Positions 5,061 through 33,661 of a DNA stretch of 36,096 nucleotides are shown here, one piece after another. The stretch is from Candidatus Woesearchaeota archaeon. GTDB lineage: Archaea > Nanobdellota > Nanobdellia > Pacearchaeales > GW2011-AR1. The number at the start of each line of letters is the position of its first letter. The first letter of the stretch is position 1. The stretch spans positions 1 through 36,096 of the forward strand of contig CAZZNU010000002.1 in NCBI GenBank assembly GCA_964655925.1. The letters are read 5' to 3'. The translations under genes were made by a program, and so were the position numbers. The notes below the pieces were generated by a model that was given only the letters and a program-made list of their open reading frames with translations, was not told where the DNA came from and ran no database searches.

Positions 5061-7652
5061 TTATCTATTGAGAATCTGGGATTGTGCTGCCGACAATCTT
5101 GCTATTGGAACTCTATATGGAGAGCAACTAATATAGTCTAATCCTACCTTATGAAAGAAATCTATTGATGTCGGGTCTCCTCCATGTTCTCCACATACAC
5201 CTAGTTTTAGACTAGAATTTGTTTTTTTGCCTTTCTTAGATGCTGTTTCTATTAAGAGTCCAACTCCTTCTATATCTAATGTTTGAAATGGGTCTTTTTT
5301 TAATATTCCTTTATCAATATATTCAGGCATAAACTTCGAAACATCATCACGGCTATATCCTAGAGTCATTTGGGTTAAGTCATTAGTTCCAAAACTAAAA
5401 AAGTCTGCTTGTTTTGCTATTTCATCAGCAGTTAGTGCTCCTCTTGGAATTTCTATCATCGTTCCAACTGAATATTTCTTGTAATTTGTCATTTTTGCAA
5501 CCTCATCAATTATATTTTTTTGGTTCTGAAATTCTCTAACATTACCGACAAAAGGAATCATAATCTCTACATTTGTTTTCGCTTTTTTAGCTTCTTCTAT
5601 AATAGCCTTTATTTGCATTTTTGTTATTTCAGGATATGTTATACCTATCCTACATCCTCTATGTCCTAACATTGGGTTTACTTCTCCTAGTTCTTTAATT
5701 TTATTTTTTAATTGTTTAATTGAGATATTTTGTTCTAGAGCTACTTTTTTAATTTCATTTTCATTTTTAGGTAAAAACTCATGTAATGGTGGATCTAGCA
5801 ACCTGATAGTTATTGGTTTCTTTTTGACAATTTGGAACAATTCCTTGAAATCTTTTTTCTGAAACGGTAGTAATTTAAGTAAAGCTTTTTCTCTTTCTTT
5901 GGTATTATCAGATAAAATCATTTCCTGCATTATTTTGATTCGTTCTTTGTCAAAGAACATATGCTCTGTTCTACACAGGCCGACTCCCTCTGCTCCAAAA
6001 CTCATCGCTATTTTTGCATCTTTAGGATTGTCCGCATTTGCTCTGACTTTTAGTTTTTTAATTTTGTCTACCCACTCCATTATTATTATAAAATCTTTAT
6101 TTAAATTCGCTTTTATTGTCTCTAATTTTCCCTTAAATACTTCCCCTGTTGAACCATCTAACGTAATAAAATCTCCCTCTCTAAATTCTTTGTTATTAAC
6201 AATCATTTTCTTTTTATTTTCATATATTTTTATTTCTGAGCAACCTACGATACAACATTTGCCCATGCCTCTAGCAACGACAGCAGCATGAGAAGTCATA
6301 CCACCACGACTTGTTAGAATACCTTTTGATATATTCATGCCTTCTATATCTTCTGGAGATGTTTCATCTCTAACTAATATCACTGATTCTCCTCTAGAAT
6401 AATATTTTTTTGCATCGTCTGCATTAAACACTACTCTACCAACAGCTGCGCCTGGAGAAGCAGGCAAGCCGACAGTCAATAACTCACTTTTCTTTTTAGA
6501 ATTAGAATCTAGTCTTTCGTGCAACAACTGTTCTAGAGACTCTGGATTTATTTTTAGTAATGCTTCTTCTTTTGTAAGTAACTTTTCTTTTACAAAATCT
6601 ATTGCAATTCTTAATGCTGCTTGGGATGTTCGTTTCCCACTCCTTGTTTGTAAAATATATAGTTTGCCTTCTTGAATGGTAAACTCTATATCTTGCATGT
6701 CTTTGTAGTGAGATTCTAATTTATCTTTGATTAAAATTAATTCTTTGTAAATTTTGAGGTTTTTATACTTTAGAGACTCAATTGACTTTGGAGTTCTAAT
6801 ACCAGCCACGATATCTTCACCTTGAGCATTTGTTAGATACTCTCCGTAGAATTTATTCTCTCCGGTAGAAGGGTTTCTGCTAAAACAAACACCTGTACCT
6901 GATGTTTCTCCCATATTCCCAAAAACCATCTCTTGCACATTTACAGCTGTTCCTAATAATTTATCTATATGATTTAATTTTCTATAAAAAATTGCTCTAG
7001 CGTTATTCCACGAATCAAATACTGTAGTTATAGTCATTAAAAGTTGTTGTTGCACATCTTGAGGGAATTTTTTCCCACTTGTTTTTATTATTACCCTTTT
7101 ATACTGTTCAATGATTTTTTTAAGCTCCTCAATGCTTAACTCTGTATCATTTTTTATTTGCTTTTTATTCTTGATAGAATTTAATATGCTTTTGAACTTT
7201 TCTTGTGGAACATTCATTACTACATCTCCAAATGCCTGGATAAAACGCCTATATGTATCTAAAGCAAATTTTTCATTTTTAGTTTTGGCAGCCAATGCCA
7301 AGATAGTTTTATCATTTAAACCTAAATTTAATAACGAATCCATCATTCCTGGCATTGACGCAGGAGAACCAGAACGAACAGAAACTAGTAATGGATTCTT
7401 CTCACACCCGAATCTTTTACCTGTTTCTTTTTCTAATAACTTTAGATGTTTTAGTATTTGGCTAGCAACAGCATTGTTTATTTTTCTATTTTCTTTATAG
7501 TATAAATTGCATGCTTGAGTTGTTATGGTAAAACCAGAAGGAACAGGTATTTTTATTGATGTCATCTCCGCTAAATTGGCCCCTTTGCCTCCTAACAATT
7601 CTTTCATATCTCTATTCCCCTCTTTAAAAGAATAAACAAATTTCTTCACCAC
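5061..7652 (-). CDS. ppdK: Pyruvate, phosphate dikinase
   Basis: 863 aa. Phosphohistidine motif GGMTSHAAVVARGMG, N-terminal ATP-grasp region, C-terminal PEP/pyruvate-binding GVCGEHGGDP. GTG start at 7650-7652. The stop directly abuts the iscS stop (5060/5061). Confidence 0.95.
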   Translation of the reverse strand: MVKKFVYSFKEGNRDMKELLGGKGANLAEMTSIKIPVPSGFTITTQACNLYYKENRKINNAVASQILKHLKLLEKETGKRFGCEKNPLLVSVRSGSPASMPGMMDSLLNLGLNDKTILALAAKTKNEKFALDTYRRFIQAFGDVVMNVPQEKFKSILNSIKNKKQIKNDTELSIEELKKIIEQYKRVIIKTSGKKFPQDVQQQLLMTITTVFDSWNNARAIFYRKLNHIDKLLGTAVNVQEMVFGNMGETSGTGVCFSRNPSTGENKFYGEYLTNAQGEDIVAGIRTPKSIESLKYKNLKIYKELILIKDKLESHYKDMQDIEFTIQEGKLYILQTRSGKRTSQAALRIAIDFVKEKLLTKEEALLKINPESLEQLLHERLDSNSKKKSELLTVGLPASPGAAVGRVVFNADDAKKYYSRGESVILVRDETSPEDIEGMNISKGILTSRGGMTSHAAVVARGMGKCCIVGCSEIKIYENKKKMIVNNKEFREGDFITLDGSTGEVFKGKLETIKANLNKDFIIIMEWVDKIKKLKVRANADNPKDAKIAMSFGAEGVGLCRTEHMFFDKERIKIMQEMILSDNTKEREKALLKLLPFQKKDFKELFQIVKKKPITIRLLDPPLHEFLPKNENEIKKVALEQNISIKQLKNKIKELGEVNPMLGHRGCRIGITYPEITKMQIKAIIEEAKKAKTNVEIMIPFVGNVREFQNQKNIIDEVAKMTNYKKYSVGTMIEIPRGALTADEIAKQADFFSFGTNDLTQMTLGYSRDDVSKFMPEYIDKGILKKDPFQTLDIEGVGLLIETASKKGKKTNSSLKLGVCGEHGGDPTSIDFFHKVGLDYISCSPYRVPIARLSAAQSQILNR

Positions 7653-7673: not shown

Positions 7674-7683
7674 TTTATAAATA
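7674..7683 (-). promoter_or_regulatory. TATA-like box upstream of ppdK
   Basis: The minus strand reads TATTTATAAA, 22-31 nt upstream of the ppdK GTG start. This is a leaderless-type geometry seen repeatedly in this window. Confidence 0.35.
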
Positions 7684-7699: not shown

Positions 7700-7748
7700 G
7701 TCGACTGTCAACTGTCTACCGTAAACTGTTTACTGTCTGCCGTCAAAT
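7700..7748 (+). repeat. Heptad array 1: 7 tandem 7-bp units of consensus GTNNAC(Y)
   Basis: GTCGACT GTCAACT GTCTACC GTAAACT GTTTACT GTCTGCC GTCAAAT, read directly. Lies between the tRNA-Glu 3' end and the ppdK TATA box. Confidence 0.9.
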
Positions 7749-7885: not shown

Positions 7886-8050
7886 TTATTTCTTCTTTTG
7901 TGGTCTAAAATCGTTAGCTCCACATTTTCTGCACCTTGCTTTTCCTGAAAGTATTTTTAAGTTATCTAAACGCATTTTGTGTTTACACACTTTACAAATA
8001 AATGCATTCTTGAATAATCTATTTTGTGCTACTGGTAATTTTGTCGCCAT
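7886..8050 (-). CDS. rpl40e: 50S ribosomal protein L40e
   Basis: Hand-translated 54-aa ORF that is absent from the track: MATKLPVAQNRLFKNAFICKVCKHKMRLDNLKILSGKARCRKCGANDFRPQKKK. It has the L40e pattern (R.F...IC..C ... C.KCG...R) with a C4 zinc ribbon and a basic tail. Confidence 0.85.
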   Translation of the reverse strand: MATKLPVAQNRLFKNAFICKVCKHKMRLDNLKILSGKARCRKCGANDFRPQKKK

Positions 8051-8188: not shown

Positions 8189-10729
8189 ATGGCAGTTTTA
8201 ACTCCTGGAATGAGTCAGTATATGAAAATAAAAAATGCTAATCCTGATTGTATCATTTTTTTTAGAATGGGGGACTTTTACGAGACTTTTTTTGAAGATG
8301 CTAAATTAATTTCTAAAGAATTGGAGATAACTTTGACATCTAGAGGAAAAAATGAGTCAAAGGCGCCATTAGCCGGAATCCCACATCATGCCATTGAACC
8401 ATATTTAGCTAAATTAGTTAAAAGAGGATATAAGGTTGGGATAGTTGAACAGGTAGAGGACCCTAAATTTGCAAAGGGATTAGTAAAAAGAGAACTTGTT
8501 AGAATAATTACACCTGGGACTGTTATAGAAAATACCATTTTAGAAAGAGGATTAAATAATTACATTGCTTGTATTTCTGAAGCGGACAGATATGTTGGTA
8601 TTTCTTATTGCGATGTTTCTACAGGAGAGTTTTCCAGTTGCAAAGTTAAAAGTGATGATTTTTTGGGAGAATTAAATAGAATTTCACCTGCTGAAGTGAT
8701 AATTCCTAGTTCACTAAAGAAATCAAAAATAGTTGAATTATTAGAAGAAAGAGAATTTTTGATAAACGAGTATGATAATTATTGTTTTTATTTTCAGAAT
8801 GCTAAAGATATATTGCTAAAACATTTTGAAGTATTAAATTTAGATGGATTTGGTCTTAATGATAATTTAGTTATAGAGGTTTCCGGTGCACTATTAAGTT
8901 ATATTAAAGAGAAACAAAAAAACTCTCTTAAACACTTTAAAAAAATAAATGTGTACCAAATAAGCGATTACATGTTTTTAGATAATGCTACCATAAAAAA
9001 TTTAGAGTTATTGAAAAATACTGTTTCTAAAAATGACAATGCTACATTAATTTCTGTTCTAGATAAAACACAAACATCCATGGGGAAAAGGCTACTAAAA
9101 AAATGGATAGTTTCGCCTTTAATTCAAAAAGAAAAAATTCAAGAAAGACTAGAAGCAGTAGAGGAATTAAAAGAAAATATGATTTTGAGGTATGATTTTA
9201 TGGAATTATTAAAGAATGTGTATGATATGGAAAGATTAATTGCTAGAGTAAGCTTCGGGAACGCTAATCCCAAGGATGTTATCTCTCTTGGGAACTCTCT
9301 AAAATATGTTCCTGAATTAAAAGAATTAATAGCAAAATGTGATTCAAAAATGTTTGATAAGTTCAAAAATATCCCTGAATTAAAAGAAGCTCAAAATATA
9401 ATAATTAATGCAATTAAGGATGAGCCATCTACTCTGTTAAAAGAGGGGAACATCATCCGCCCTGGATACAACAAAGAACTTGATGACTTAAGGATTTTAA
9501 GTAGAGATGCAAGAACTTATTTAGCGGAAGTCGAAGATAGAGAAAGAGAAAAAAGTGGTATCAAAAACTTAAGGATTAGATACAATAAAATCATTGGATA
9601 TTTTATAGAAGTGACTAAAGGAAACTTGGATTTGGTTCCAGAATATTTTATTAGAAAGCAATCGCAAGTAAATAGTGAGAGATTTGTAACTGAAGAACTA
9701 AAAGAGTTAGAGATAAAAATATTAGGTGCACAAGATAAAATCTATGATTTAGAATATAATTTGTTTATGGAAGTAATAGAGAATTTGAAAGTATATATTT
9801 CAGAGATACAAGAAGTCTCTTCATGTGTTGCTATTATTGATTGCATCACCTCACTTTCAATTGTTGCGCAAGAAAAAAATTATTGCAAGCCAATATTGAA
9901 CTCTGAATCCAAAATAGAATTAATTGAATCAAGACACCCCGTTGTAGAAGCTTTTAGTCAAATTGATTTCATAACCAATGACTGTTACTTAGATAATAAT
10001 AACAGAACTATGATAATAACTGGCCCAAACATGGCCGGAAAGTCTACATATTTGCGTCAAATCGCATTGATTGCTTTAATGGCTCAGGTTGGCTCTTTTG
10101 TTCCGGCAAAATATGCAAATGTCTGTGTAGTTGATAGAGTATTTTCTAGAATTGGAGCATATGATGACTTGGTAAATCATCAATCTACATTTATGGTAGA
10201 AATGAATGAAACAGCAAATATACTAAATAATGCTACAGAAAAAAGTTTGGTCATATTAGATGAAATCGGTCGAGGAACTTCTACCTTTGATGGAGTAAGT
10301 TTAGCATGGGCTATTGCTGAATTCTTAAATAATGAAATAAAGTGTAAAACTCTTTTTGCTACTCACTATCATCATTTAAACAAATTATCTGAAAAGTTCT
10401 CTGGTATAAATAATTTTAATATTGCAGTGGAAGAATATGAAGATAAAATACTATTTTTAAGAAAAATTATAAAAGGTGGAACTGATAAGAGTTATGGTAT
10501 TCAAGTAGCGAAACTAGCTGGAATACCAGACAGTGTAATTAATTGTGCCAAAAATGTTATGAATCTAATAGAGCTTGAAGACAATATCAGTGATAAAATT
10601 GACTTAGAAAAAGAAGCAGATAATTCATTAATAGAAAAAGAAATAAAAGAAAAAATCGAGAGGGAAACTAAAGAAAAACTAACTAGAAAAATAAATGAAC
10701 TACTGAGGAGAATTGAAAATGACGATTAA
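8189..10729 (+). CDS. mutS: DNA mismatch repair protein MutS (bacterial MutS1 type)
   Basis: 846 aa. N-terminal mismatch-binding motif TPGMSQYMKIK...GDFYETF, Walker A GPNMAGKST, DEIGRGTST, and a C-terminal K/E-rich coiled tail. Confidence 0.95.
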   Translation: MAVLTPGMSQYMKIKNANPDCIIFFRMGDFYETFFEDAKLISKELEITLTSRGKNESKAPLAGIPHHAIEPYLAKLVKRGYKVGIVEQVEDPKFAKGLVKRELVRIITPGTVIENTILERGLNNYIACISEADRYVGISYCDVSTGEFSSCKVKSDDFLGELNRISPAEVIIPSSLKKSKIVELLEEREFLINEYDNYCFYFQNAKDILLKHFEVLNLDGFGLNDNLVIEVSGALLSYIKEKQKNSLKHFKKINVYQISDYMFLDNATIKNLELLKNTVSKNDNATLISVLDKTQTSMGKRLLKKWIVSPLIQKEKIQERLEAVEELKENMILRYDFMELLKNVYDMERLIARVSFGNANPKDVISLGNSLKYVPELKELIAKCDSKMFDKFKNIPELKEAQNIIINAIKDEPSTLLKEGNIIRPGYNKELDDLRILSRDARTYLAEVEDREREKSGIKNLRIRYNKIIGYFIEVTKGNLDLVPEYFIRKQSQVNSERFVTEELKELEIKILGAQDKIYDLEYNLFMEVIENLKVYISEIQEVSSCVAIIDCITSLSIVAQEKNYCKPILNSESKIELIESRHPVVEAFSQIDFITNDCYLDNNNRTMIITGPNMAGKSTYLRQIALIALMAQVGSFVPAKYANVCVVDRVFSRIGAYDDLVNHQSTFMVEMNETANILNNATEKSLVILDEIGRGTSTFDGVSLAWAIAEFLNNEIKCKTLFATHYHHLNKLSEKFSGINNFNIAVEEYEDKILFLRKIIKGGTDKSYGIQVAKLAGIPDSVINCAKNVMNLIELEDNISDKIDLEKEADNSLIEKEIKEKIERETKEKLTRKINELLRRIENDD

Positions 10730-12449
10730 AACACTAGATGAATCTACAATCAATAAGATTGCAGCTGGAGAAGTAATAGAAAGACCTGCAAACATCGTAA
10801 AAGAACTATTAGAAAATAGTTTTGATGCAGGTGCTGATTACATCAAAATTGAAATTGAAAATGCAGGTCTAGATAAAATAAAAATATCTGATAATGGGCA
10901 TGGCATGGATAAAGATGATTGCTTGCTTTCAATTAAGCGTCATACAACTTCAAAGATTAATAATGAATTTGACTTATACAATATACAATCTTTAGGTTTC
11001 CGCGGAGAGGCATTAGGTTCTATCTCTGAAGTTTCTAATATAAAAATCATTACAAAAAGGGCAGAAGATGAACTAGGAACATTAATGGAAGCAGTGGGAG
11101 GTAAAGTTACAAAAGTAGAACCTACAATTAGTAAAAGCGGTACTATTATTGAGATTACTAATCTATTTTTTAATATGCCGGTCAAGAAAGAATTCCTTAA
11201 ATCTAATGAACTTGAGTTTTCTCAAATTTTAAAAATAGTTTCTAAATATGCATTAATTAAAAAAAATGCTTCTATTATTTTAGTACATAACGGAAAAGAG
11301 ATAATTAACTCTCCTAAAACTGATAATTTCCTAAATAATGTTATGTTTATTTTAGGAGTAGAAAATGGACGAAATTTAATAGAAGTTAATTATAAGGACG
11401 AAGGAATTTCTGTTTTAGGATTTATATCAAGACCTAACCTAACGAGAGCAGACAAGAATGAACAATCTATTTATGTTAATCAAAGATATGTGAAAGATAA
11501 AATCATTAGTGATGCCGTCTATGATGCATATAAGACTTTATTATTTGTTAATCGTCATCCTATTTTTGTGTTGGATGTTAGAATAAACTCTTCACTAACA
11601 GATGTTAATGTTCATCCTGCAAAAGAAATTATCAAATTTAAAAATGAGAAAGAAGTTTATAAAAGTGTTTTCACAGCTATAAAATCTACACTCTCTAAAG
11701 CCAACCTAATCGTTGACACAAGCCTAGATGGCGAAGGAAAAGACAGTCCTGCGAAAATTTACAATATGTATTCAGATAGGCAAACTAATTTGTTCAAAGA
11801 AGATATTCAATACAATATTACAAAGGAAAATCCTACTTTTATTAAAGATATGGATTTAACGCAAAACACTTTCGGTAAATTAAAAGTTTTAGGACAAATA
11901 AACAAAACTTTTATTATTTGTGAATCTTTGGATGGACTTGTTTTGTTTGATCAACACGCTGCAGAAGAAAGAATAAATTTTGAAAAATTCACAAAAGAAC
12001 TTAGAGACAATGCAATAAAGAAACAGCAACTTTTAGAAAAAAGAATATTAGAGTTAAATCCTGAACAAAAAAATATAGCCATGTACTTCAAGAATTTCTT
12101 ATATAAGATTGGTTTTGAATTCGAGGACTTTGACACCAACACTATAAAACTTTCTACTGTTCCCGAAATATTTGGACGTTTAAAATCTACACTCTTCATT
12201 GATATACTAAATGAACTTTTAAAGGATAAAGTAGAGATAATGGATGATGAAATAGAGTCTAGAATTGCCCGGTTCTCTTGCCGTGCTAGTGTAAAAGCTG
12301 GAGATGAATTAACACACGATGAAATTTTAAATTTAATTACAAGACTTGAAAAATGCGAGAACCCCTTTTCTTGCCCACATGGAAGACCCACTATAATAAA
12401 AATATCAGTTTCTGAACTAGAAAGAAAGTTTAAGAGAACTGGATGGTAA
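10719..12449 (+). CDS. mutL: DNA mismatch repair protein MutL (endonuclease-proficient type)
   Basis: GHKL ATPase N-terminus (AAGEVIERP, ELLENSFDAG, DNGHGM). C-terminal DQHAAEERINFE (DQHAxxExxxxE), SCRASVKAGD and CPHGRPT motifs. ATG 10719 is preceded by GAGGAG and overlaps the mutS stop. The track start at 10713 is a TTG. Confidence 0.93.
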   Translation: MTIKTLDESTINKIAAGEVIERPANIVKELLENSFDAGADYIKIEIENAGLDKIKISDNGHGMDKDDCLLSIKRHTTSKINNEFDLYNIQSLGFRGEALGSISEVSNIKIITKRAEDELGTLMEAVGGKVTKVEPTISKSGTIIEITNLFFNMPVKKEFLKSNELEFSQILKIVSKYALIKKNASIILVHNGKEIINSPKTDNFLNNVMFILGVENGRNLIEVNYKDEGISVLGFISRPNLTRADKNEQSIYVNQRYVKDKIISDAVYDAYKTLLFVNRHPIFVLDVRINSSLTDVNVHPAKEIIKFKNEKEVYKSVFTAIKSTLSKANLIVDTSLDGEGKDSPAKIYNMYSDRQTNLFKEDIQYNITKENPTFIKDMDLTQNTFGKLKVLGQINKTFIICESLDGLVLFDQHAAEERINFEKFTKELRDNAIKKQQLLEKRILELNPEQKNIAMYFKNFLYKIGFEFEDFDTNTIKLSTVPEIFGRLKSTLFIDILNELLKDKVEIMDDEIESRIARFSCRASVKAGDELTHDEILNLITRLEKCENPFSCPHGRPTIIKISVSELERKFKRTGW

Positions 12450-16668: not shown

Positions 16669-17437
16669 AATTAAAATTGGTCCTTCAGGTGTTGGGCCTG
16701 TGAAGGATATTATAAATAATTTGGAAAGGTTCTCTAGAGCTGGAATTTCTGTAGCTGAGATTACATTTACTTATAGTGTCTATATAAATAAAGATGATGC
16801 CATTAAAATTAAGGAAGCTGCCGATAAATTTGGTATAGAACTTTCAATTCATGCCCCCTATTACATAAATCTTAATTCTGATGATGAGAAAAAACTTAGT
16901 GCTTCAAAGCAAAGAATAATAAAATGTTGTGAGATTGGGCATTTAATTGGGGCGAGGCAGATAGTTATACATTCAGGGTTTTATTCTAAAAAAAGTCCTG
17001 AGGAAACTTATGAAAATATAAAAAAATCTATTATAGAATTGATGGAAATAATCAAGAAAAATAATTGGGATGTAGAGTTAGCACCTGAGGTGATGGGAAA
17101 AGTTAATGTATTTGGTTCTATTGAAGAAATATCTAAGCTTGCAAGTGAGACTGGTTGTTCTTTCACGATAGATTTTGCACACATCCTTGCTAGATACAAG
17201 AAGCCTATGCTAGAAGATGTTATATTAGCATTCCCTCAAAAAAAATGGCATTGTCATTTCTCTGGAATTGAATATAACGAAAAAGGAGAAAGAAAACACA
17301 TTAATACTGAAATATCTGAATGGAAAAATTTGTTAGATAGATTAAAAAAATTAGATAAAGAAATTAATATTATTAACGAATCTCCAAATCCGTTTGAGGA
17401 TGCTGTGATGGGAATAAAGTTACTTGGGGAGCAGTAA
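16661..17437 (+). CDS. nfo: AP endonuclease family 2 / endonuclease IV-like TIM-barrel protein
   Basis: 258 aa. Metal-ligand pattern HAPYYINL, VIHSG, APEVMGK, IDFAHI and HCHFSGIEY, as in archaeal endonuclease IV-like proteins. Confidence 0.75.
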   Translation: MSKIKIGPSGVGPVKDIINNLERFSRAGISVAEITFTYSVYINKDDAIKIKEAADKFGIELSIHAPYYINLNSDDEKKLSASKQRIIKCCEIGHLIGARQIVIHSGFYSKKSPEETYENIKKSIIELMEIIKKNNWDVELAPEVMGKVNVFGSIEEISKLASETGCSFTIDFAHILARYKKPMLEDVILAFPQKKWHCHFSGIEYNEKGERKHINTEISEWKNLLDRLKKLDKEINIINESPNPFEDAVMGIKLLGEQ

Positions 17438-17475
17438 ACTGTTTACTGTCAACTGTATACGGTCAACTGTTTACC
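17434..17475 (+). repeat. Heptad array 2: 6 tandem GTNNAC(Y) units filling a convergent gene gap
   Basis: GTAAACT GTTTACT GTCAACT GTATACG GTCAACT GTTTACC. Overlaps the nfo-like stop (17435-17437) and the giant gene stop (17471-17473). Confidence 0.9.
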
Positions 17476-20400
17476 CTAATCTTATTATTACACTTCCGCC
17501 GGTAGACGATATAGTAATATTTCCAGAAGTTGTGTTTATTACAGGATGATTTGTGCCTGTATTATCTACATCAATTAGTAATCCACCTTTTGTACCATTT
17601 ACATGGAACTTTTTTTGTGGTGTAGTTGTGCCGATTCCAACATTGCCCGTTGAACCAAGAGTTACTATCCTTGTATCTGCACCAGCACTATTAACAAGAT
17701 TAAAAGTCATAGATCCGTCTAATAGTCTTATATAAGAAGCTCCAATCGAAGTATTCTCTCTCCCCCATGAACCGGTATAACGCCAATTATTACTTATGCC
17801 TGCACCCATATAGGTCAAACCGGGTTCACTTGCCCATAAATATAAATCAGAATTTGTATTAGCATTATTTTCAGCTTTAAGATGTATTTGTGAAGTAGTA
17901 TGAGAACCTTGTATATTCAATAATTTATCAGGGTTACTTGTCCCAATTCCTACTCTATCCGTATTTGAATTAACAAATAAAGTATTCGTGTCAACAGTTA
18001 GGTTTTTAACAAAAACATTATTCTCAGCAAATGTATTCGCTTTGTTAATAAACGCTACATTAGTCATATTTCCTGTCCACCTAGGGTCTGTCTCTGTCTT
18101 TATACTAGATGAATTAACTGCTTGAAGTTGGGAATAAGTTACAGCATCGGTGGCTGAAGAACCGCTCGCTAGTCCTGTGATTTTATTGGAATTCATTGCT
18201 AAAGTTCCCCTAATATTGACTGTGCCATTTACATCTAATGTTGATGTTGGGGATATTGTTCCTATGCCTACTCGTTTGTTTTGAACTCCGCCTGAACCGT
18301 CGGATTCTGAGTAAATAGAAAGTATATTTTCGCTATCTACTCTAAACACATATCCTTCAGGGGTGCCAGTTAATGCTGCTGACGAAACTGGCATATCCAT
18401 TGCTGTTACAAGTCCTGAATCTTCTGAAAAAGATAGCGTTCCTATATTTAGTGTTCCACCAACATCAATTTCGTTATTAGGATTTACTTTAAACATATTA
18501 ATCACTCCTGTTCCTGAAGAATCGACTGCACTTATCCATTCATTATTAGCAATCTTTAATTTATCAAACGAGCCCAAGTTTGCAGAAATGTTGGTAACTG
18601 TTAGATTATCTTTGATGATAACACTACCACTAACATCTAATTTGGCAGCTGGTACTGATGTCCCAATTCCTACATTGCCAGATCCTAATAGCGTCATAGC
18701 AGTTGTTCCTTTCGGGCTTAGTGTTATCTTATTTGTATTAGAATTATATCCTGTTGAGATATCTAAAGAATTTGAACCAGATCCACTATAAGTTATTTTG
18801 GCATTTTTATTGCTTCCACCATCTTCTGTGAATGATGTAAATGTTAATACTGTAGAACTACCTGTTCTTCCTCTTATATGCAAACTGCTAGTTGGCACGG
18901 CTGTCCCAATACCGACTTGTTTATTTGTGGCATCGATAAATAAAGCATTTGTGTTAAATGATTGATTATATGCTCCAAACGAATTCGCTTTATTAACAAA
19001 AGCTACATTAGAAAAATTACCTGTCCATCTAGGATCTGTTTCAGTCTTTATGCCAGATGAATTGACAGCTTTAAGTTGAGAAAAAGTCACAGCCTCTGTG
19101 TCTGAAGAAGCATTTGCTAAGCCTGTGATTTTATTAGAGTTCATCGTTAAATTACCTTCTACTGAAACATTACCTACAATGTGTAGATTTGCATTAGGAG
19201 TAGCAGTTCCAATGCCGACCCTTCCAACATTTGTTAAATTCATAGCATTTAAATTAATACTTTTTACCGCATTTTCATAAGGAACAAAATCTCCACTGAC
19301 AATATTACTAACTGCTTGAAGCTGAGCATAGGTTACAGCATCAGTGCCAGAAGAACCATTTTTTAGACCTGTTATAACATAATTGTTCATTGTTAGATTA
19401 CCTTCTACTGAAACATTGCCTGCAACATGCAGTTTTGACTTTGGAGAGCCTGTTCCAATGCCTATATTCCCTGCATCTGTAATCCTCAACCTTTCTTGTG
19501 GTGAATTCCCTCCAGTTTTTATCAAAAAATCACCTGCACCTCCACTTCTTCTGATTCCACCAATTTCTGGGCCATATCCATCTGATGTACTTGTTCTAAA
19601 TTTAATAAAAGCGCCACCATCTTCATTAGTAGCATCGTTTGCATGCACTCCTTGCAATGTGATGTAATTTCTATGTGTTCCAGCAGTACCTGTTGCAGGA
19701 AAATTTAAAGTACTAATTGTAACGGTGCCATTAGTGGTTAGTGCCTGATTTCCTAAATTCACTGATTTTGAAGCACCTGTATAAGGTATAAAGTCACCAC
19801 TAACAGTATTGCTAACTGCTTGGAGCTGAGCATAAGTCACAGCATCATAAGGTGAAGAACCGTTAGATAAATTAGTAATTTTTTTATTGTTCATTATAAT
19901 ATTTCCAGTAATATTTAACCCTGCGAACTTTGGACTACTTGCTATTGTAACATTTTGGTCCATTGCATAAAGTTTATTTGCACCTTGCCCGGTATTTATT
20001 GTAGTAGCATTCAATGTTCCAACCGAGACCGATCCAGTTGTGGTTAGTCCTTGACCGCTTAAGTTTATTGGTTTTGTCGCACCTGTGTATGGAATAAAAT
20101 CAGACAAATCTTGGTTTGTGTACATTCTTAGTTTCCCATTTTTAAATTCAAAAATAGGATGCTCTATATTTAACCTAAAAGAAGTTGTTGCTGTATACAT
20201 CATTCCTAGCATAATATAGATGTATCCATCCTCAGTTGTAGGTAAGTTTTGAGTTAAATAATCTCCACTAGTTGTTCCTGCACCAGCTAAAACAAATAGG
20301 CCATCATTATTTATTGTACCTTTAAGATAAATTGGCTTATGCGCTGTCCATCCACTCTGAACATTTTGATTATATCTAAAATTTGTGCCCATAGAAACAG

Positions 20401-22909
20401 ATGAATAAATATAAGAAGTTGAAGTAGCGGCGTTTGCAGCAACGGTAGCAGTCGTATAATATGCTAAAATGGGACTATTAACAACAAAAGGTTGGGAGTT
20501 AACAGTCTTTGCATTAGCTGATGTACTATCTCCAATAACAATTGGATGATACCTTCCATCTGAAGCCATCATTAAAAGTTTATATCTCGTTATTTGTTCT
20601 CCTGCAATTACCCCAGAACCACTCCATCTAACTGTATATGATTCTGTTCCATCTACATAATCTGCCCATACCCAACGACCAACTCCATCTATTGTGGTGT
20701 ATGTTAAAATTGCTACTGTGTTAACAGGTAAATGTGTCGTAAAAGCTCCTGCATTTCTGTAAACTTGTATTGCACCTAAATTATTTATGTTTAAAGTGGT
20801 CGTAGAAGCTCCTGCTATTCCTATTTTATAAGCTATTGTTAATCCATTATAATAGTTTTTTATATCTGAATTTGTTCCTAACCATGTTCCTGCAGTTGTT
20901 CCAGATCCTTCAACATAATATAGGCTATCACTAACACTTGCAAAATCACTTGAGTTTAACCCATCTAATAAGTCCGCATCTAAACCACTACCACTACCAT
21001 CATTACCTTCGTGCCAAATTTTATTCCCCTCAACTGCTATTGTTCCCGCAGATATCCTAGTTATTGTAGTATCCGATGCGTGTCCTATGTTAATTCCTGT
21101 AAATTGTGGGCTACTAGATGTTGTAACATTTTGATTCATTGCATAAAGTTTATTTGCACCTTGCCCGGTATTTATTGTAGTAGCATTCAATGTGCCAACC
21201 GAAACCGATCCAGTTGTGGTTAGTCCTTGACTGCCTAAGTTTATTGGCTTTGTTGCACCTGTGTATGGAACAAAATCGCCACTAACAGTGTTACTAACTG
21301 CTTGGAGCTGAGCGTAAGTCACAGCATCGGTGGCCGAAGAACCGTTAGATAAATTAGTAATCTTTTTATTATTCATTATAATATTTCCAGTAATATTTAA
21401 CCCTGCAAACTTTGGACTACTTGCTATTGTAACATTTTGGTCCATTGCATAAAGTTTGTTTGCGCCTTGTCCAGTATTTATTGTAGTAGCATTCAATGTG
21501 CCAACCGAAACCGACCCGGTTGTACTTAACCCTTGACCGTTTAAGTTTATTGGTTTTGTTGCACCTGTGTATGGAACAAAATCGCCACTAACAGTATTAC
21601 TAACTGCTTGGAGCTGAGCGTAAGTCACGGCATCGGTGGCCGAAGAACCATTCGATAAGCCAGTGATTTTATTGGAATTCATTGCTAAAGTTCCCCTAAT
21701 ATTGACTGTACCATTTACATCTAATGTCGATGTTGGAGATATTGTTCCTATGCCTACTCGTTTATTTTGAACTCCGCCTGAACCGTCGGATTCTGAGTAA
21801 ATAGAAAGTATATTTTCGCTATCTACTCTAAACACATATCCTTCAGGGGTGCCAGTTAATGCTGCTGACGAAACTGGCATATCCATTGCTGTTACAAGTC
21901 CTGAATCTTCTGAAAAAGATAGCGTTCCTATATTTAGTGTTCCACCAACATCAATTTCGTTATTAGGATTTACTTTAAACATATTAATCACTCCTGTTCC
22001 TGAAGAATCGACTGCACTTATCCACTCATTATTAGCAATTTTTAATTTATCAAACGAGCCCAAATTTGCAGAAATATTATATATGCCTAATGTTAAATTT
22101 TTGGTTGCTCCTAAGTATGGAAGGAAATCATCTGTAATTGACGTACTAATCGATTGAAGTTGAGCATAAGTTACAGCATCAGTAGCTGAAGAACCATTCG
22201 CTAAACCAGTGATTTTATTAGAATTCATTGCTAATAACCCCGAGATGGACGCATTTCCATCAACTGTTAATTTATAAGTTGGAGAAGTTAATCCTATTCC
22301 GACATTTCCAACATTAAAATAAATGTTATTTCCGGAAGTTATCCATTGGGAGGCTCCTTCAATTCCTGACAAATTTAAGTTTATTAACTTTGAACCATCT
22401 CCTATGAAATAGGAAGCTGTTATATTCCCTGTTGTTATAAGATTTTGCCCTGATAAATTTACCTGAGAATTAAACTCTACTCCAGAAATTGTAACATTTT
22501 GGGCTCTGACGGCGTACGGCGTCGATGTTAAATTTATTCTGGGCGTCATTTCAGCATCAGAACCTACCTTTATTCCCAAAAAATATTGCGTATCTGCTTT
22601 TATCTTATCAATACCATCTAAAATTACATCATATATGCCTTCACTATCTGGTGTTATTGTTTTAAGTTTTGTATACACGGGAGTGCCACCGGTGTAAGAA
22701 TTATAAATAGAAAAATTTATGTTAGTTGCAGTTGTTATCGGAGCTCCATCAGAATTTGTAAGTTTACCATGGATATTAAATGTTTGAGGTATAGCACTAA
22801 CGACAGTAAGTAAAAATAAAAAAAGTAACACAGTAGTCAAGTGTCCGAGGTAAGATATCTGAAGTCCGACAGTTAATTTCTTCTTTATCATGTTTCCTCT
22901 TTTGTTCAT
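17471..22909 (-). CDS. Giant secreted repeat protein, tail-fibre/adhesin-like (1812 aa)
   Basis: N-terminal signal/TM (LTTVLLFLFLLTVVSA). 7 copies of NKITGL-x-GSSATDAVTYAQLQ-type motifs. 9 copies of (G)xVGIGTxxPxxxLxVxG motifs. KIWHEGNDGSGSGLDADLLDG motif as in phage tail fibres. ETDPRW motifs. No C-terminal anchor. Confidence 0.9.
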   Translation of the reverse strand: MNKRGNMIKKKLTVGLQISYLGHLTTVLLFLFLLTVVSAIPQTFNIHGKLTNSDGAPITTATNINFSIYNSYTGGTPVYTKLKTITPDSEGIYDVILDGIDKIKADTQYFLGIKVGSDAEMTPRINLTSTPYAVRAQNVTISGVEFNSQVNLSGQNLITTGNITASYFIGDGSKLINLNLSGIEGASQWITSGNNIYFNVGNVGIGLTSPTYKLTVDGNASISGLLAMNSNKITGLANGSSATDAVTYAQLQSISTSITDDFLPYLGATKNLTLGIYNISANLGSFDKLKIANNEWISAVDSSGTGVINMFKVNPNNEIDVGGTLNIGTLSFSEDSGLVTAMDMPVSSAALTGTPEGYVFRVDSENILSIYSESDGSGGVQNKRVGIGTISPTSTLDVNGTVNIRGTLAMNSNKITGLSNGSSATDAVTYAQLQAVSNTVSGDFVPYTGATKPINLNGQGLSTTGSVSVGTLNATTINTGQGANKLYAMDQNVTIASSPKFAGLNITGNIIMNNKKITNLSNGSSATDAVTYAQLQAVSNTVSGDFVPYTGATKPINLGSQGLTTTGSVSVGTLNATTINTGQGANKLYAMNQNVTTSSSPQFTGINIGHASDTTITRISAGTIAVEGNKIWHEGNDGSGSGLDADLLDGLNSSDFASVSDSLYYVEGSGTTAGTWLGTNSDIKNYYNGLTIAYKIGIAGASTTTLNINNLGAIQVYRNAGAFTTHLPVNTVAILTYTTIDGVGRWVWADYVDGTESYTVRWSGSGVIAGEQITRYKLLMMASDGRYHPIVIGDSTSANAKTVNSQPFVVNSPILAYYTTATVAANAATSTSYIYSSVSMGTNFRYNQNVQSGWTAHKPIYLKGTINNDGLFVLAGAGTTSGDYLTQNLPTTEDGYIYIMLGMMYTATTSFRLNIEHPIFEFKNGKLRMYTNQDLSDFIPYTGATKPINLSGQGLTTTGSVSVGTLNATTINTGQGANKLYAMDQNVTIASSPKFAGLNITGNIIMNNKKITNLSNGSSPYDAVTYAQLQAVSNTVSGDFIPYTGASKSVNLGNQALTTNGTVTISTLNFPATGTAGTHRNYITLQGVHANDATNEDGGAFIKFRTSTSDGYGPEIGGIRRSGGAGDFLIKTGGNSPQERLRITDAGNIGIGTGSPKSKLHVAGNVSVEGNLTMNNYVITGLKNGSSGTDAVTYAQLQAVSNIVSGDFVPYENAVKSINLNAMNLTNVGRVGIGTATPNANLHIVGNVSVEGNLTMNSNKITGLANASSDTEAVTFSQLKAVNSSGIKTETDPRWTGNFSNVAFVNKANSFGAYNQSFNTNALFIDATNKQVGIGTAVPTSSLHIRGRTGSSTVLTFTSFTEDGGSNKNAKITYSGSGSNSLDISTGYNSNTNKITLSPKGTTAMTLLGSGNVGIGTSVPAAKLDVSGSVIIKDNLTVTNISANLGSFDKLKIANNEWISAVDSSGTGVINMFKVNPNNEIDVGGTLNIGTLSFSEDSGLVTAMDMPVSSAALTGTPEGYVFRVDSENILSIYSESDGSGGVQNKRVGIGTISPTSTLDVNGTVNIRGTLAMNSNKITGLASGSSATDAVTYSQLQAVNSSSIKTETDPRWTGNMTNVAFINKANTFAENNVFVKNLTVDTNTLFVNSNTDRVGIGTSNPDKLLNIQGSHTTSQIHLKAENNANTNSDLYLWASEPGLTYMGAGISNNWRYTGSWGRENTSIGASYIRLLDGSMTFNLVNSAGADTRIVTLGSTGNVGIGTTTPQKKFHVNGTKGGLLIDVDNTGTNHPVINTTSGNITISSTGGSVIIRLG
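18177..18589. repeat. Intragenic long repeat A (copy 1 of 2)
   Basis: 413 bp aligned by eye to 21663-22075 with about 7 mismatches. The offset is exactly 3486 bp (1162 codons, in frame). Confidence 0.9.
19795..20101. repeat. Intragenic repeat C, dispersed copy (~307 bp)
   Basis: Aligns by eye to 21277-21583 (offset 1482 bp, in frame) at roughly 90-95% identity. Encodes SGDF(V/I)PYTGATKPINL..GQGL.TTGSVSVGTLNATTINTGQGANKLYAMDQNV...NKKITNLSNGSS..DAVTYAQLQAV. Confidence 0.85.
21101..21583. repeat. Intragenic repeat C, tandem copies (partial ~176 bp plus full ~307 bp)
   Basis: 21101-21276 is a partial unit. 21277-21583 is a full unit homologous to 19795-20101. Confidence 0.8.
21663..22075. repeat. 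Intragenic long repeat A (copy 2 of 2)
   Basis: See 18177-18589. The track's antisense ORFs 18363..18791 and 21849..22157 share an identical 75-aa N-terminus, which independently confirms the duplication. Confidence 0.9.
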
Positions 22910-22940
22910 TTTATCGTTACAGTTATTATATAACTACAGT

Positions 22941-22950
22941 ATTTAAAATA
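22941..22950 (-). promoter_or_regulatory. TATA-like box upstream of the giant gene
   Basis: The minus strand reads TATTTTAAAT, 32-41 nt upstream of ATG 22909 and 3 nt from heptad array 3. Confidence 0.3.
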
Positions 22951-22952
22951 TT

Positions 22953-23043
22953 GGTTGACGGTAAGCGGTAAACAGTTGACAGTAAACGGTTGACAGTTGA
23001 CAGTAAACGGTTGACAGTTGACAGTAAACCGCATGCCGTAAGC
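22953..23043 (-). repeat. Heptad array 3: 13 tandem units in the opposite orientation, with a 21-bp higher-order period
   Basis: The plus strand reads GGTTGAC GGTAAGC GGTAAAC AGTTGAC AGTAAAC GGTTGAC AGTTGAC AGTAAAC GGTTGAC AGTTGAC AGTAAAC CGCATGC CGTAAGC. The 21-bp unit AGTTGACAGTAAACGGTTGAC occurs twice perfectly, followed by a partial third copy. Confidence 0.92.
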
Positions 23044-23052
23044 TTTAAATAA
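23044..23052 (+). promoter_or_regulatory. TATA-like box (TTTAAATAA) upstream of the 23073 gene
   Basis: Lies 21-29 nt upstream of ATG 23073 and directly abuts heptad array 3. Confidence 0.35.
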
Positions 23053-23072: not shown

Positions 23073-23360
23073 ATGGTTAAGAAAAAAGAGGTTAAAAAGA
23101 CAAAAAAACCTGTCAAACCATCAGCTAAAAAAAAGACGAAAAAACAAAAAGAACTTTTTGAAAAGTATTGGTTCTGGGCTATTGTATCTAGCGTTGTTGG
23201 ATTTTTCGTAGCAGCAGTTATTTTCGGTACTGCAGGAATAGTACTAGGTTCGCTGAGTTTGAAGAAAAAAGAGAATAAAAACAGAGCTATCCTTGGAATA
23301 GTTTTAGGTTCTGTAGATGTTCTACTCTGGGTAGTTTCTTTGTTTGTTTTATATCTTTAA
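23073..23360 (+). CDS. Small membrane protein with a Lys-rich N-terminal tail and two TM helices
   Basis: 95 aa. MVKKKEVKKTKKPVKPSAKKKTKKQK, followed by two hydrophobic helices (DUF4190-like topology, by eye). Confidence 0.6.
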   Translation: MVKKKEVKKTKKPVKPSAKKKTKKQKELFEKYWFWAIVSSVVGFFVAAVIFGTAGIVLGSLSLKKKENKNRAILGIVLGSVDVLLWVVSLFVLYL

Positions 23361-24431: not shown

Positions 24432-25238
24432 ATGAACATAATTAAAGCATCTGGTGCTATAGAGTTGTTTGATTCCAAAAAAATTTATTATACAATAAGA
24501 GAAGCTGGTGCTTCTAATAAATTAGCAAAAGAAGCAGTGAGAGCAGTTCGTTCTATTATATATGACGGTATTACCAGTGAGGAAATATTGAAATTTTTAT
24601 TAAATTTTTTAAAAAAAGAAAAAGGCGTTTCACAGAGATATAATTTAAAAAAAGCTGTGATGTCCCTTGGTCCCTCTGGGTTTCCTTTCGAAAAGTATTT
24701 TGCTAAAATATTGGATTTATATGGATACAAAACAAATGTTGGAGTACGACTGAAAGGGAAAAGAGTACTACACGAAGTAGACATTGTAGCTATTAAGAAT
24801 AAAAAAGCTATGATAGAATGTAAGTATCACAACCAATCTGGTATTTCTACTGGTTTACAACCCGCAATGTACACATATGCTCGGTTTTTAGATTTAAAGG
24901 GACACAATTTTAATTTCCCTTGGCTCGTAACAAACACAAAGTGTTCTATTGACGCCCAAAACTATGCTGAGGGGGTTGACTTGAAAATTACGAGTTGGAA
25001 CTATCCTCCTAACGAAAGTTTACTCAAACTAATAGAGAATAAAAGAATCTATCCTATTACTATTTCAAACACTTTAAAAAAATATGAACTGGAAAAGTTT
25101 TTTGACGCTAACATCATTACAGTAAAAGATTTATTAAGAATAGACATAGATAAAATTGTTAATCTTACCGGAATAAATAAAAGTAGAATTCAGAAAATTG
25201 TTCAAGAAATTAAACTTATAAATGATAATGTTTCTTAG
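24432..25238 (+). CDS. ATP-cone domain protein fused to a PD-(D/E)xK nuclease-like core and a C-terminal helix-hairpin-helix
   Basis: The N-terminal ~90 aa is ATP-cone-like (IKASGAIELFDSKKI...). The core HEVDIVAIKNKKAMIECKYH gives a D...ExK pattern. The C-terminus ITVKDLLRIDIDKIVNLTGINKSRIQKIV is HhH-like. Confidence 0.7.
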   Translation: MNIIKASGAIELFDSKKIYYTIREAGASNKLAKEAVRAVRSIIYDGITSEEILKFLLNFLKKEKGVSQRYNLKKAVMSLGPSGFPFEKYFAKILDLYGYKTNVGVRLKGKRVLHEVDIVAIKNKKAMIECKYHNQSGISTGLQPAMYTYARFLDLKGHNFNFPWLVTNTKCSIDAQNYAEGVDLKITSWNYPPNESLLKLIENKRIYPITISNTLKKYELEKFFDANIITVKDLLRIDIDKIVNLTGINKSRIQKIVQEIKLINDNVS

Positions 25239-33580: not shown

Positions 33581-33590
33581 GTATTTAAAG
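33581..33590 (-). promoter_or_regulatory. TATA-like box upstream of the receptor-like gene
   Basis: The minus strand reads CTTTAAATAC, 21-30 nt upstream of ATG 33560 and 8 nt from heptad array 4. Confidence 0.35.
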
Positions 33591-33598
33591 ATTAGGCT

Positions 33599-33661
33599 GT
33601 CAACTGTCAACTGTCAACTGTCAACCGTATACTGTTAACTGTTAACTGTTCACCGCTCACC
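33599..33661 (+). repeat. Heptad array 4: 9 tandem GTNNAC(Y) units
   Basis: GTCAACT GTCAACT GTCAACT GTCAACC GTATACT GTTAACT GTTAACT GTTCACC GCTCACC. The last unit overlaps the rtcB stop (33657-33659). Confidence 0.92.

Follow-up and report, generated by a model that had tools for sequence, protein, structure and literature searches.

Tandem repeats with a 7-bp unit have been described in several bacterial systems. On the inc18 plasmid pSM19035, the ribbon-helix-helix (RHH) protein omega/ParB binds to parS/operator sites that need at least four contiguous heptads to function (PMC9499535). The STRR heptamers of cyanobacteria and the TAACTGA repeats of Beggiatoaceae, Cyanobacteria, and Bacteroidetes are tandem 7-bp units that are dispersed across intergenic regions, and hairpin or post-transcriptional roles have been proposed for them (PMC2670836, PMC4679880). 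In Haemophilus influenzae, the promoters of the adhesin genes hmw1A and hmw2A contain a tract of (ATCTTTC)n whose copy number varies (PMC8262952). For the DPANN archaea, our literature searches turned up no description of dispersed tandem heptamers, promoter heptamer tracts, or heptad operators. Here we analyze a 36-kb stretch of DNA from a Candidatus Woesearchaeota archaeon (contig CAZZNU010000002.1, positions 1 to 36,096; "the window"), which holds four arrays of heptads, all of them intergenic. The longest of the four, array 3, lies between a gene for a giant surface protein and a divergently oriented gene for a small membrane protein. Array 3 belongs to a family of heptad arrays that are intergenic and specific to the lineage and that have the unit 5'-GTNNAC-Y-3', and we propose, with a probability of roughly 0.4, that the arrays are the reiterated binding site of a dimeric DNA-binding protein and can expand by slippage.

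When we searched the window for three GTNNAC units at 7-bp spacing, with at most one mismatch, there were 24 matches, as compared to 0.03 expected from shuffled sequences, and every match was within one of the four arrays. Elsewhere in the window, there is not even an isolated pair of GTNNAC units. Tandem Repeats Finder reports periods of 7, 14, and 21 across all four arrays. Arrays 1 to 4 have 5, 6, 10-11, and 8-9 units, respectively, and within each array the heptads (5-11 units per array) are contiguous and in strict 7-bp register. If the arrays are oriented by GTCAAC-T, then arrays 1, 2, and 4 are on the plus strand and array 3 is on the minus strand.

Across the 34 units in register, the core is nearly fixed (G at position 1 in 34/34 units, T at position 2 in 31/34, A at position 5 in 33/34, and C at position 6 in 33/34), but this invariance is inflated, because that same GTNNAC core served to delimit the arrays. 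Moreover, arrays 3 and 4 consist of duplicated units rather than of independent samples. The consensus is GT[C/T][A/T]AC[T/C]: position 3 is C, T, or A, position 4 is A or T, and the spacer is T or C (G in two units and never A). Among the 51 letters in these units that depart from the majority of their column, 46 sit at positions 3, 4, and 7. In other words, the fixed bases form a dyad, GT..AC, while the two bases inside it and the spacer are free to vary. Arrays 1 and 2 are not products of recent slippage, because there are 9 distinct units among their 13 and they share no repeat beyond one unit (7 nt). In these two arrays alone, the variation is concentrated at P = 3e-5, or about 1e-3 if corrected for the post hoc choice of positions. 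Also, the arrays are richer in G+C than the genome, which has 31% G+C, and their G and C are retained.

Because the fixed dyad recurs every 7 bp while its inner bases are free, we infer that the heptad is the site of a protein with two-fold symmetry. Such a protein would bind side by side along the heptads. At array 3, its occupancy would cover the DNA next to the transcription factor B recognition element (BRE) of both of the divergent promoters, and it would thus help or hinder the recruitment of TFB and TBP at the giant gene and the small membrane protein (DUF4190) gene jointly. At array 2, the only role open to the protein would be to separate convergent transcripts, as a boundary or roadblock. 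In array 3, the number of sites would change by three through slippage or unequal exchange within a perfect 21-bp repeat, and the helical phase between the TATA boxes would stay the same (21 bp being about two turns). The outcome would be a heritable change in dose, not an on/off frameshift. With this model, one can understand why there are four arrays, why the dyad is fixed and the register strict, and why no array has fewer than five units. Good parallels exist in omega/ParB of pSM19035 and in MetJ.

The strict part of array 3 (22954..23029, minus strand) comprises 11 heptads in register, 10 with an exact GTNNAC and one that is degenerate. On the plus strand, it opens with GTTGAC at 22954, and its single degenerate hexamer is GTAAGC. 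On the minus strand, heptads 1-6 read GTCAACC, GCTTACC, GTTTACC, GTCAACT, GTTTACT, and GTCAACC, and heptads 7-11 read GTCAACT, GTTTACT, GTCAACC, GTCAACT, and GTTTAC. Two more degenerate units, CGCATGC and CGTAAGC (23030..23043, minus strand), extend the array to the TATA box on its right. Within the array, the 21-bp unit AGTTGACAGTAAACGGTTGAC (plus strand) occurs in two perfect copies of three heptads each (22974-22994 and 22995-23015), followed by an incomplete third copy of 14 nt (23016-23029), so that there are 2.7 copies of the perfect unit in total. Tandem Repeats Finder assigns array 3 a period of 21, with 3.6 copies, 92% matches, and a score of 124, and a repeat search gave start-to-start spacings of 21, 21, and 14. 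A preliminary description of this DNA, made without database searches, had placed array 3 correctly to within 1 nt, as we found by re-reading the sequence, and the super-period of 21 bp that it described is present as the two perfect copies and partial third at 22974-23029. It also took the array for something other than random slippage. We agree that it is not plain slippage of one unit, as only four of the seven positions of the heptad are fixed. Array 3 is the only member of the family to have expanded recently.

The preliminary description proposed a comparison of the number of array units across populations, and a polymorphism in length is indeed present: one 21-bp unit is missing in two sequencing runs, and all else is identical. 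To obtain these data, we looked up the proteins of the window in public assemblies and aligned the window with the contigs found there (Logan assemblies), which come from at least 10 runs. The alignments add up to about 130 kb; their sole mismatch is at the window's last base, and their only internal difference is a 21-bp deletion, which corresponds to one higher-order unit of array 3, in SRR27197526 and DRR784974. Arrays 1, 2, and 4 are identical in these two runs. Arrays 1, 2, and 4 recur without any change in the independent assemblies, which shows that the arrays were not created by assembly. The short allele of array 3 also appears to be real, rather than a collapsed assembly, because seven 31-mers are repeated in the long allele and none in the short allele. 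The repeated 31-mers of the long allele also explain why the contigs from three other runs, SRR30309641, SRR11702767, and SRR11702770, start at 23000, inside array 3. Array 3 is the fastest-changing site that we saw in this genome. The step is 21 bp because neighboring heptads differ and only the three-unit block repeats perfectly. As 21 bp is about two helical turns, the rotational setting of the two TATA boxes is kept.

Two other observations come from these alignments. First, apart from the indel in array 3, the contigs are 100% identical across SRR117027xx, SRR27197526, SRR303096xx, SRR8925807, DRR5203xx, and DRR784974. Such clonality is unusual for an environmental archaeon. Second, one contig of SRR11702770 stops right at the edge of the perfect (GTCAACT)4 run in array 4 (33596-33630), which is the break that would be expected if SRR11702770 also has a longer allele.

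To survey the promoters, we aligned the upstream regions of 28 genes in the window. In 11 of the 28, the 8-mer TTTAAATA or TTTATAAA begins 27-30 nt ahead of the start codon (or, for a tRNA, of the mature 5' end). From its layout, we take this 8-mer to be the TATA box of archaeal promoters for leaderless transcripts. On the right side of array 3, there is a TTTAAATA box at 23044-23051 (plus strand) that directly abuts the last degenerate unit. It lies at −29 from the ATG of the DUF4190 gene (23073), which is the typical spacing for leaderless genes in the window, and its predicted assignment to this gene is well supported. On the left side, TTTAAATA occurs on the minus strand (TATTTAAA on the plus strand) at 22940-22947, and 6 nt separate it from the first hexamer of the array. 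This box plausibly serves the giant gene, but the assignment is not unique, as the spacing from the first ATG (22909) is −38, there is an alternative TATA-like box, GTTATATA, at −25 (22927-22934, minus strand), and the gene caller behind the database begins the giant protein at the second ATG (for a length of 1806 amino acids).

These results bear on the proposal in the preliminary description that TATA-like boxes flank the array and serve both genes. Given the 11 genes with a box at −27 to −30, both of the flanking boxes are plausible archaeal TATA boxes. The link to the DUF4190 gene is well supported, with the box at exactly −29, while the link to the giant gene is weakened by the spacing of −38 and by the alternative at −25. 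The outermost heptads do lie where a BRE or an upstream element would be, as had been suggested, at a distance of 6 nt from the left box and 0-14 nt from the right box. More generally, for three of the four arrays, a TATA box follows 0-18 nt downstream of the end of the array (for array 3, at both ends).

The giant gene (17471..22909, minus strand) encodes a surface protein of 1812 amino acids with a signal peptide, YadA_stalk repeats, and a segment that resembles a phage tail fibre. It has array 3 on its upstream side and array 2 on its downstream side, and its G+C content (0.35-0.39) is above that of its flanks. The gene is itself repetitive: it contains a 306-bp tandem duplication (21096-21683; 1.9 copies, 87% matches) and long internal repeats (18509-18589 / 21601-22075), and several public contigs end at its repeats. 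The DUF4190 gene on the other side of array 3 (23073..23360, plus strand) encodes a small Lys-rich membrane protein of 95 amino acids. Two genes downstream of array 3, there is a gene for a 268-amino-acid protein (24432-25238) that combines an ATP-cone, a fold of the Mrr-type restriction endonucleases, and a helix-hairpin-helix/AF1548-like C-terminus. It is a possible candidate for a nucleotide-sensing DNA-binding protein.

Array 1 (7700..7747, plus strand) lies between the 3' end of a tRNA-Glu (7758) and the TATA box of pyruvate phosphate dikinase (7674-7681, at −29). Its seven heptads are all different (GTCGACT, GTCAACT, GTCTACC, GTAAACT, GTTTACT, GTCTGCC, and GTCAAA). Array 4 (33599..33660, plus strand) has nine heptads (three copies of GTCAACT, then GTCAACC, GTATACT, two copies of GTTAACT, GTTCACC, and GCTCAC). 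On one side is the stop codon of RtcB (33657), which falls in the last unit, and on the other is a TATA box at 33582-33589 (at −29) that serves a gene for a membrane-anchored, 674-amino-acid protein that has a signal peptide. Array 2 (17434..17474, plus strand) has six heptads (GTAAACT, GTTTACT, GTCAACT, GTATACG, GTCAACT, and GTTTAC) and occupies the entire 33-nt gap between the convergent stops of an endonuclease IV-like gene and the giant gene, so that its terminal heptads contain both stop codons. The preliminary description saw the array as a regulatory platform shared by two promoters. As a definition of the element this fails, as the array is one of four in the same family and array 2 lies between stop codons without a TATA box. 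Since array 2 has no promoter, adjacency to promoters is not what defines the element.

The window as a whole has about 31% G+C. Its Kae1 is archaeal, with Pacearchaeota/Nanoarchaeota as the closest named relatives, so the host appears to be a low-GC, Pacearchaeota-like DPANN archaeon. Other genes in the window include MetAP, CDC48, RtcB, the Suf system, MutS/MutL, pyruvate phosphate dikinase, and one tRNA-Glu. The mutS and mutL genes are of the bacterial type and are adjacent (8189-12449) in this DPANN genome. Between the tRNA-Glu and mutS, there is an open reading frame (ORF) for a 54-amino-acid zinc-ribbon protein that resembles ribosomal protein L40e (7886-8050, minus strand).

Several points weigh against a reiterated binding site. 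Besides the inflated core counts and the duplicated units of arrays 3 and 4, the family is seen as four arrays only. There is no TATA-like box on either side of array 2, and so no promoter there, and in so compact a genome, any intergenic element will adjoin a TATA box. No obvious binder domain is encoded beside the arrays, among either the proteins of the window or those of the flanking contigs, and neither an RHH protein nor ParA turned up in Pfam scans of the window's proteins or in the precomputed domains of the flanking genes. A winged-helix protein that is encoded beside a similar element in metagenomes (see below) has no homologue in the archaeal DNA that we examined. Finally, relatives at 70-80% identity in Kae1 lack the arrays (12.6-21 kb per locus, not syntenic with the window), and so do three loci with homologous giant genes (L503-L505). 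(The contig of a relative at 91% identity ends before the orthologous site.) As they are absent from the relatives and from the homologous giant-gene loci, the arrays are dispensable. They are patchy and are quickly gained or lost; within the same organism, the flanks of the window have none over 10 kb on the left and 3 kb on the right. The giant protein has its closest homologues at L503-L505, in an island of at least six genes for very large surface proteins, with YadA-stalk, LamG, and fibrinogen-C domains and with interspersed genes for Bro-N, Fic, and HEPN/nucleotidyltransferase proteins. Thus, the arrays are not a general companion of these giant genes.

The first alternative is that the arrays are a neutral or selfish satellite similar to STRR: functionless heptads that arise and spread by slippage and recombination, with array 3 between two promoters by coincidence and with the 21-bp change being ordinary minisatellite instability. 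This would account for the patchy distribution, including the absence of arrays from the relatives, from the 13 kb of flanking genome, and from the homologous giant-gene loci, and for the instability, as variation is confined to the one array with a long perfect repeat. It also fits with the many bacteria that have tandem heptamer arrays of unknown function (PMC2670836; PMC4679880). Furthermore, the GTNNAC pattern is not a special class of heptads across databases. In viral contigs, we found 78 five-unit stretches for GTNNAC, 71 for the control pattern ACNNGT, and 87 for the control pattern CTNNAG, with a similar share of heterogeneous arrays. With one genome per species, the matches listed for GTNNAC arrays are from cyanobacteria, Bacteroidota, Acidobacteriota, Gemmatimonadota, Chloroflexota, Patescibacteria, and one archaeon. 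As the controls are as frequent as GTNNAC, these hits show how abundant tandem heptamers are in general and do not point to a common system. What is notable is that one core recurs at four separate sites in this genome, and a satellite does not readily explain this. Nor does it explain why arrays 1 and 2, which lack long repeats, keep GT..AC in register, as neutral decay should strike all seven positions equally, or why G and C are kept in a genome with 31% G+C. We consider a functionless satellite somewhat unlikely.

A second alternative is that the arrays form hairpins in RNA (or cruciforms in DNA), as do REP/BIME elements or as has been proposed for STRR (PMC2670836), and that the stem ends or stabilizes the upstream transcript. 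As GUUGAC, GUUAAC, and GUAUAC are self-complementary (if G-U pairs are allowed), a transcribed array could fold into an interrupted stem. Arrays 1, 2, and 4 directly follow a gene or tRNA, where transcription of a 3' trailer is expected, and in arrays 2 and 4 a stop codon is within a terminal heptad. Compared to shuffled sequences, the predicted folds are stable for array 2(+) (z = −4.0), array 3(+) (z = −4.6), array 3(−) (z = −3.1), and array 4(−) (z = −3.9), but array 1(−) (z = −1.2) and array 2(−) (z = −1.5) fold no better than shuffles. Also, the potential partner units in array 1 have inner bases that are not complementary, those in array 2 are complementary there only in part, and array 3 is upstream of both TATA boxes, where transcription is not expected. 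No Rfam family matches the arrays (the search matched only the tRNA-Glu). So, hairpins suit some of the arrays and not the whole family, and we view them as an improbable explanation for it.

A third alternative, which we judge to be about as doubtful as hairpins, is that array 3 is a dedicated contingency locus of the giant adhesin-like gene: the copy number of the array would set the output of the promoter and be under selection for it, with no need for a specific binder. Array 3 is directly upstream of the gene for the 1812-amino-acid surface protein, and nothing but its copy number differs internally between the populations. Loops of 7 or 21 nt should escape mismatch repair, given what is generally known about the size limits of MutS, so variable heptad arrays would fit with the MutS/MutL that the window encodes. 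And there is a precedent in hmw1A, where more heptamers lead to less transcript (PMC8262952). On the other hand, we saw just two alleles, 21 bp apart, which preserve the phase of the spacing and the reading frame; arrays 1, 2, and 4 are of the same kind, yet they are invariant and are not beside adhesin genes; and homologous giant genes elsewhere have no such tract. A contingency locus and a reiterated binding site are compatible with each other. In the combined form, one DNA-binding protein on the GTNNAC arrays would jointly control a few envelope or surface genes, and array 3 would add control of the giant gene's dose by slippage. We think that this full scenario is unlikely. If it is true, then to our knowledge array 3 would be the first promoter repeat contingency locus to be described in an archaeon.

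It is very unlikely that the arrays are recombination substrates at the borders of exchangeable surface-gene cassettes: although arrays 2 and 3 bracket the giant gene in opposite orientations and share a 16-nt inverted match, the giant gene exceeds its flanks in G+C, and arrays on a metagenome contig also bracket surface protein genes (see below), four arrays in about 28 gaps would give one adjacent pair with a chance of nearly one half, the gene's own TATA box would move along in any inversion between arrays 2 and 3, so that nothing would change, and we found no recombinase nearby and no rearranged contigs among the runs that we aligned.

We also considered and rejected some other kinds of elements. 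A replication origin is not indicated, as there is no orc1/cdc6 gene, and a CRISPR array would have spacers, which these arrays lack. Repeats within a coding sequence do not apply, as the arrays are outside of the ORFs of the window. Finally, GTNNAC is presumably the recognition site of MjaIV/Hpy166II, and avoidance of a restriction site might have cleared it from the rest of the window. Outside of the arrays, there are 57 GTNNAC sites versus 72 expected (z = −1.8), which is like other dyad patterns.

Two kinds of similar elements turned up in metagenomes. First, contig L181, with 29% G+C and promoters of the TTTAAATA type (an archaeal type), has four to five heterogeneous arrays (466-492, 2566-2599, 7426-7466, 9875-9930, and about 12190-12240). 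These arrays bracket two genes for LamG surface proteins. The 5' arrays extend into the first 20-30 codons, where a slip of 7 bp would cause a frameshift, and one of the two LamG genes has its stop codon within a terminal heptad. Second, a scan with a pattern derived from arrays 2 and 3 found a 27-nt element with four heptads, GTTKAC-N-GTTTAC-T-GTCAAC-N-GTMAAC, in about 45 low-GC contigs (numbered within L146-L256). In most of these contigs, the element is at most a few tens of nt upstream of a gene for a protein of about 325 amino acids with an N-terminal winged helix and a C-terminal motif like that of phosphoribosyltransferases (for example, the element at L179:197-223 and the gene at L179:241-1224:+; another such gene is at L176:3911-4885:+). 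The 29 complete winged-helix proteins average 58% identity, and the element is nearly invariant, although the DNA around it diverges as well. A TTGACA within one heptad of the element would be the −35 box of a TTGACA-N18-TATAAT promoter. The element looks like the autoregulatory operator of an uncharacterized family of regulators, judging by its placement and conservation. We treat it as an analogy and not as a link to our arrays, because its central heptads match by the design of the search and because the archaeal DNA that we examined has no homologue of the protein.

DPANN archaea rely on attachment to host cells, and how they regulate their very large surface proteins is little understood. 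A repeat tract that abuts the promoters of such a gene would offer a testable handle on regulation and on variation between populations in an uncultured archaeal lineage, and a fixed dyad core within variable units gives a defined bait with which to look for a protein that recognizes it. Even as inert satellites, the arrays would be useful as strain markers, and they are a known cause of breaks in the assemblies of these genomes.

How do the arrays compare to the systems that are already known? Regulators that bind tandem short boxes are familiar, as with MetJ, which binds tandem 8-bp boxes. Among heptad systems, the parS sites of pSM19035 are similar to our arrays in that they are contiguous 7-bp units without gaps, in groups of at least four and directly upstream of promoters, and in both systems, units can be in either orientation within one array (PMC9499535). 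They differ in their consensus (WATCACW versus GTNNACY) and in that the parS sites are bacterial and plasmid-borne, with the binder and its partner ATPase encoded alongside, while one of our arrays has no promoter. The tract at hmw1A is like array 3 in that heptads lie between the promoter elements of a very large adhesin gene and vary in copy number between close populations. But the hmw1A tract is uniform, changes in steps of one unit, and is in the 5' untranslated region of the active promoter, whereas array 3 changes by 21 bp and is upstream of both TATA boxes.

The STRR and TAACTGA repeats share with our arrays a 7-bp tandem unit, a location at many intergenic sites of one genome, and a patchy distribution across lineages. 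In contrast to our arrays, which have mixed units with only the dyad core fixed, they are mostly uniform copies of a heptamer. Sets of TAACTGA repeats are found a few nt before start codons, while the host of our arrays is an archaeon with TATA-box promoters, and the STRR host is a heterocystous cyanobacterium, whereas the host here is archaeal, as indicated by its Kae1 and its TATA promoters. GTNNACY is not known to be among the STRR heptamers. The 27-nt metagenome element is similar in having GTTTAC, GTCAAC, GTAAAC, and GTTGAC at 7-bp spacing beside a promoter, but it is probably from Patescibacteria, is of fixed length, occurs once per contig, and is tied to one gene family. Overall, dispersed tandem heptamers in bacteria, heptamer tracts in promoters, and heptad operators are known already. 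What is new here is heterogeneous units with a dyad core that abut archaeal TATA boxes, with one copy, near a giant gene, that varies by 21 bp.

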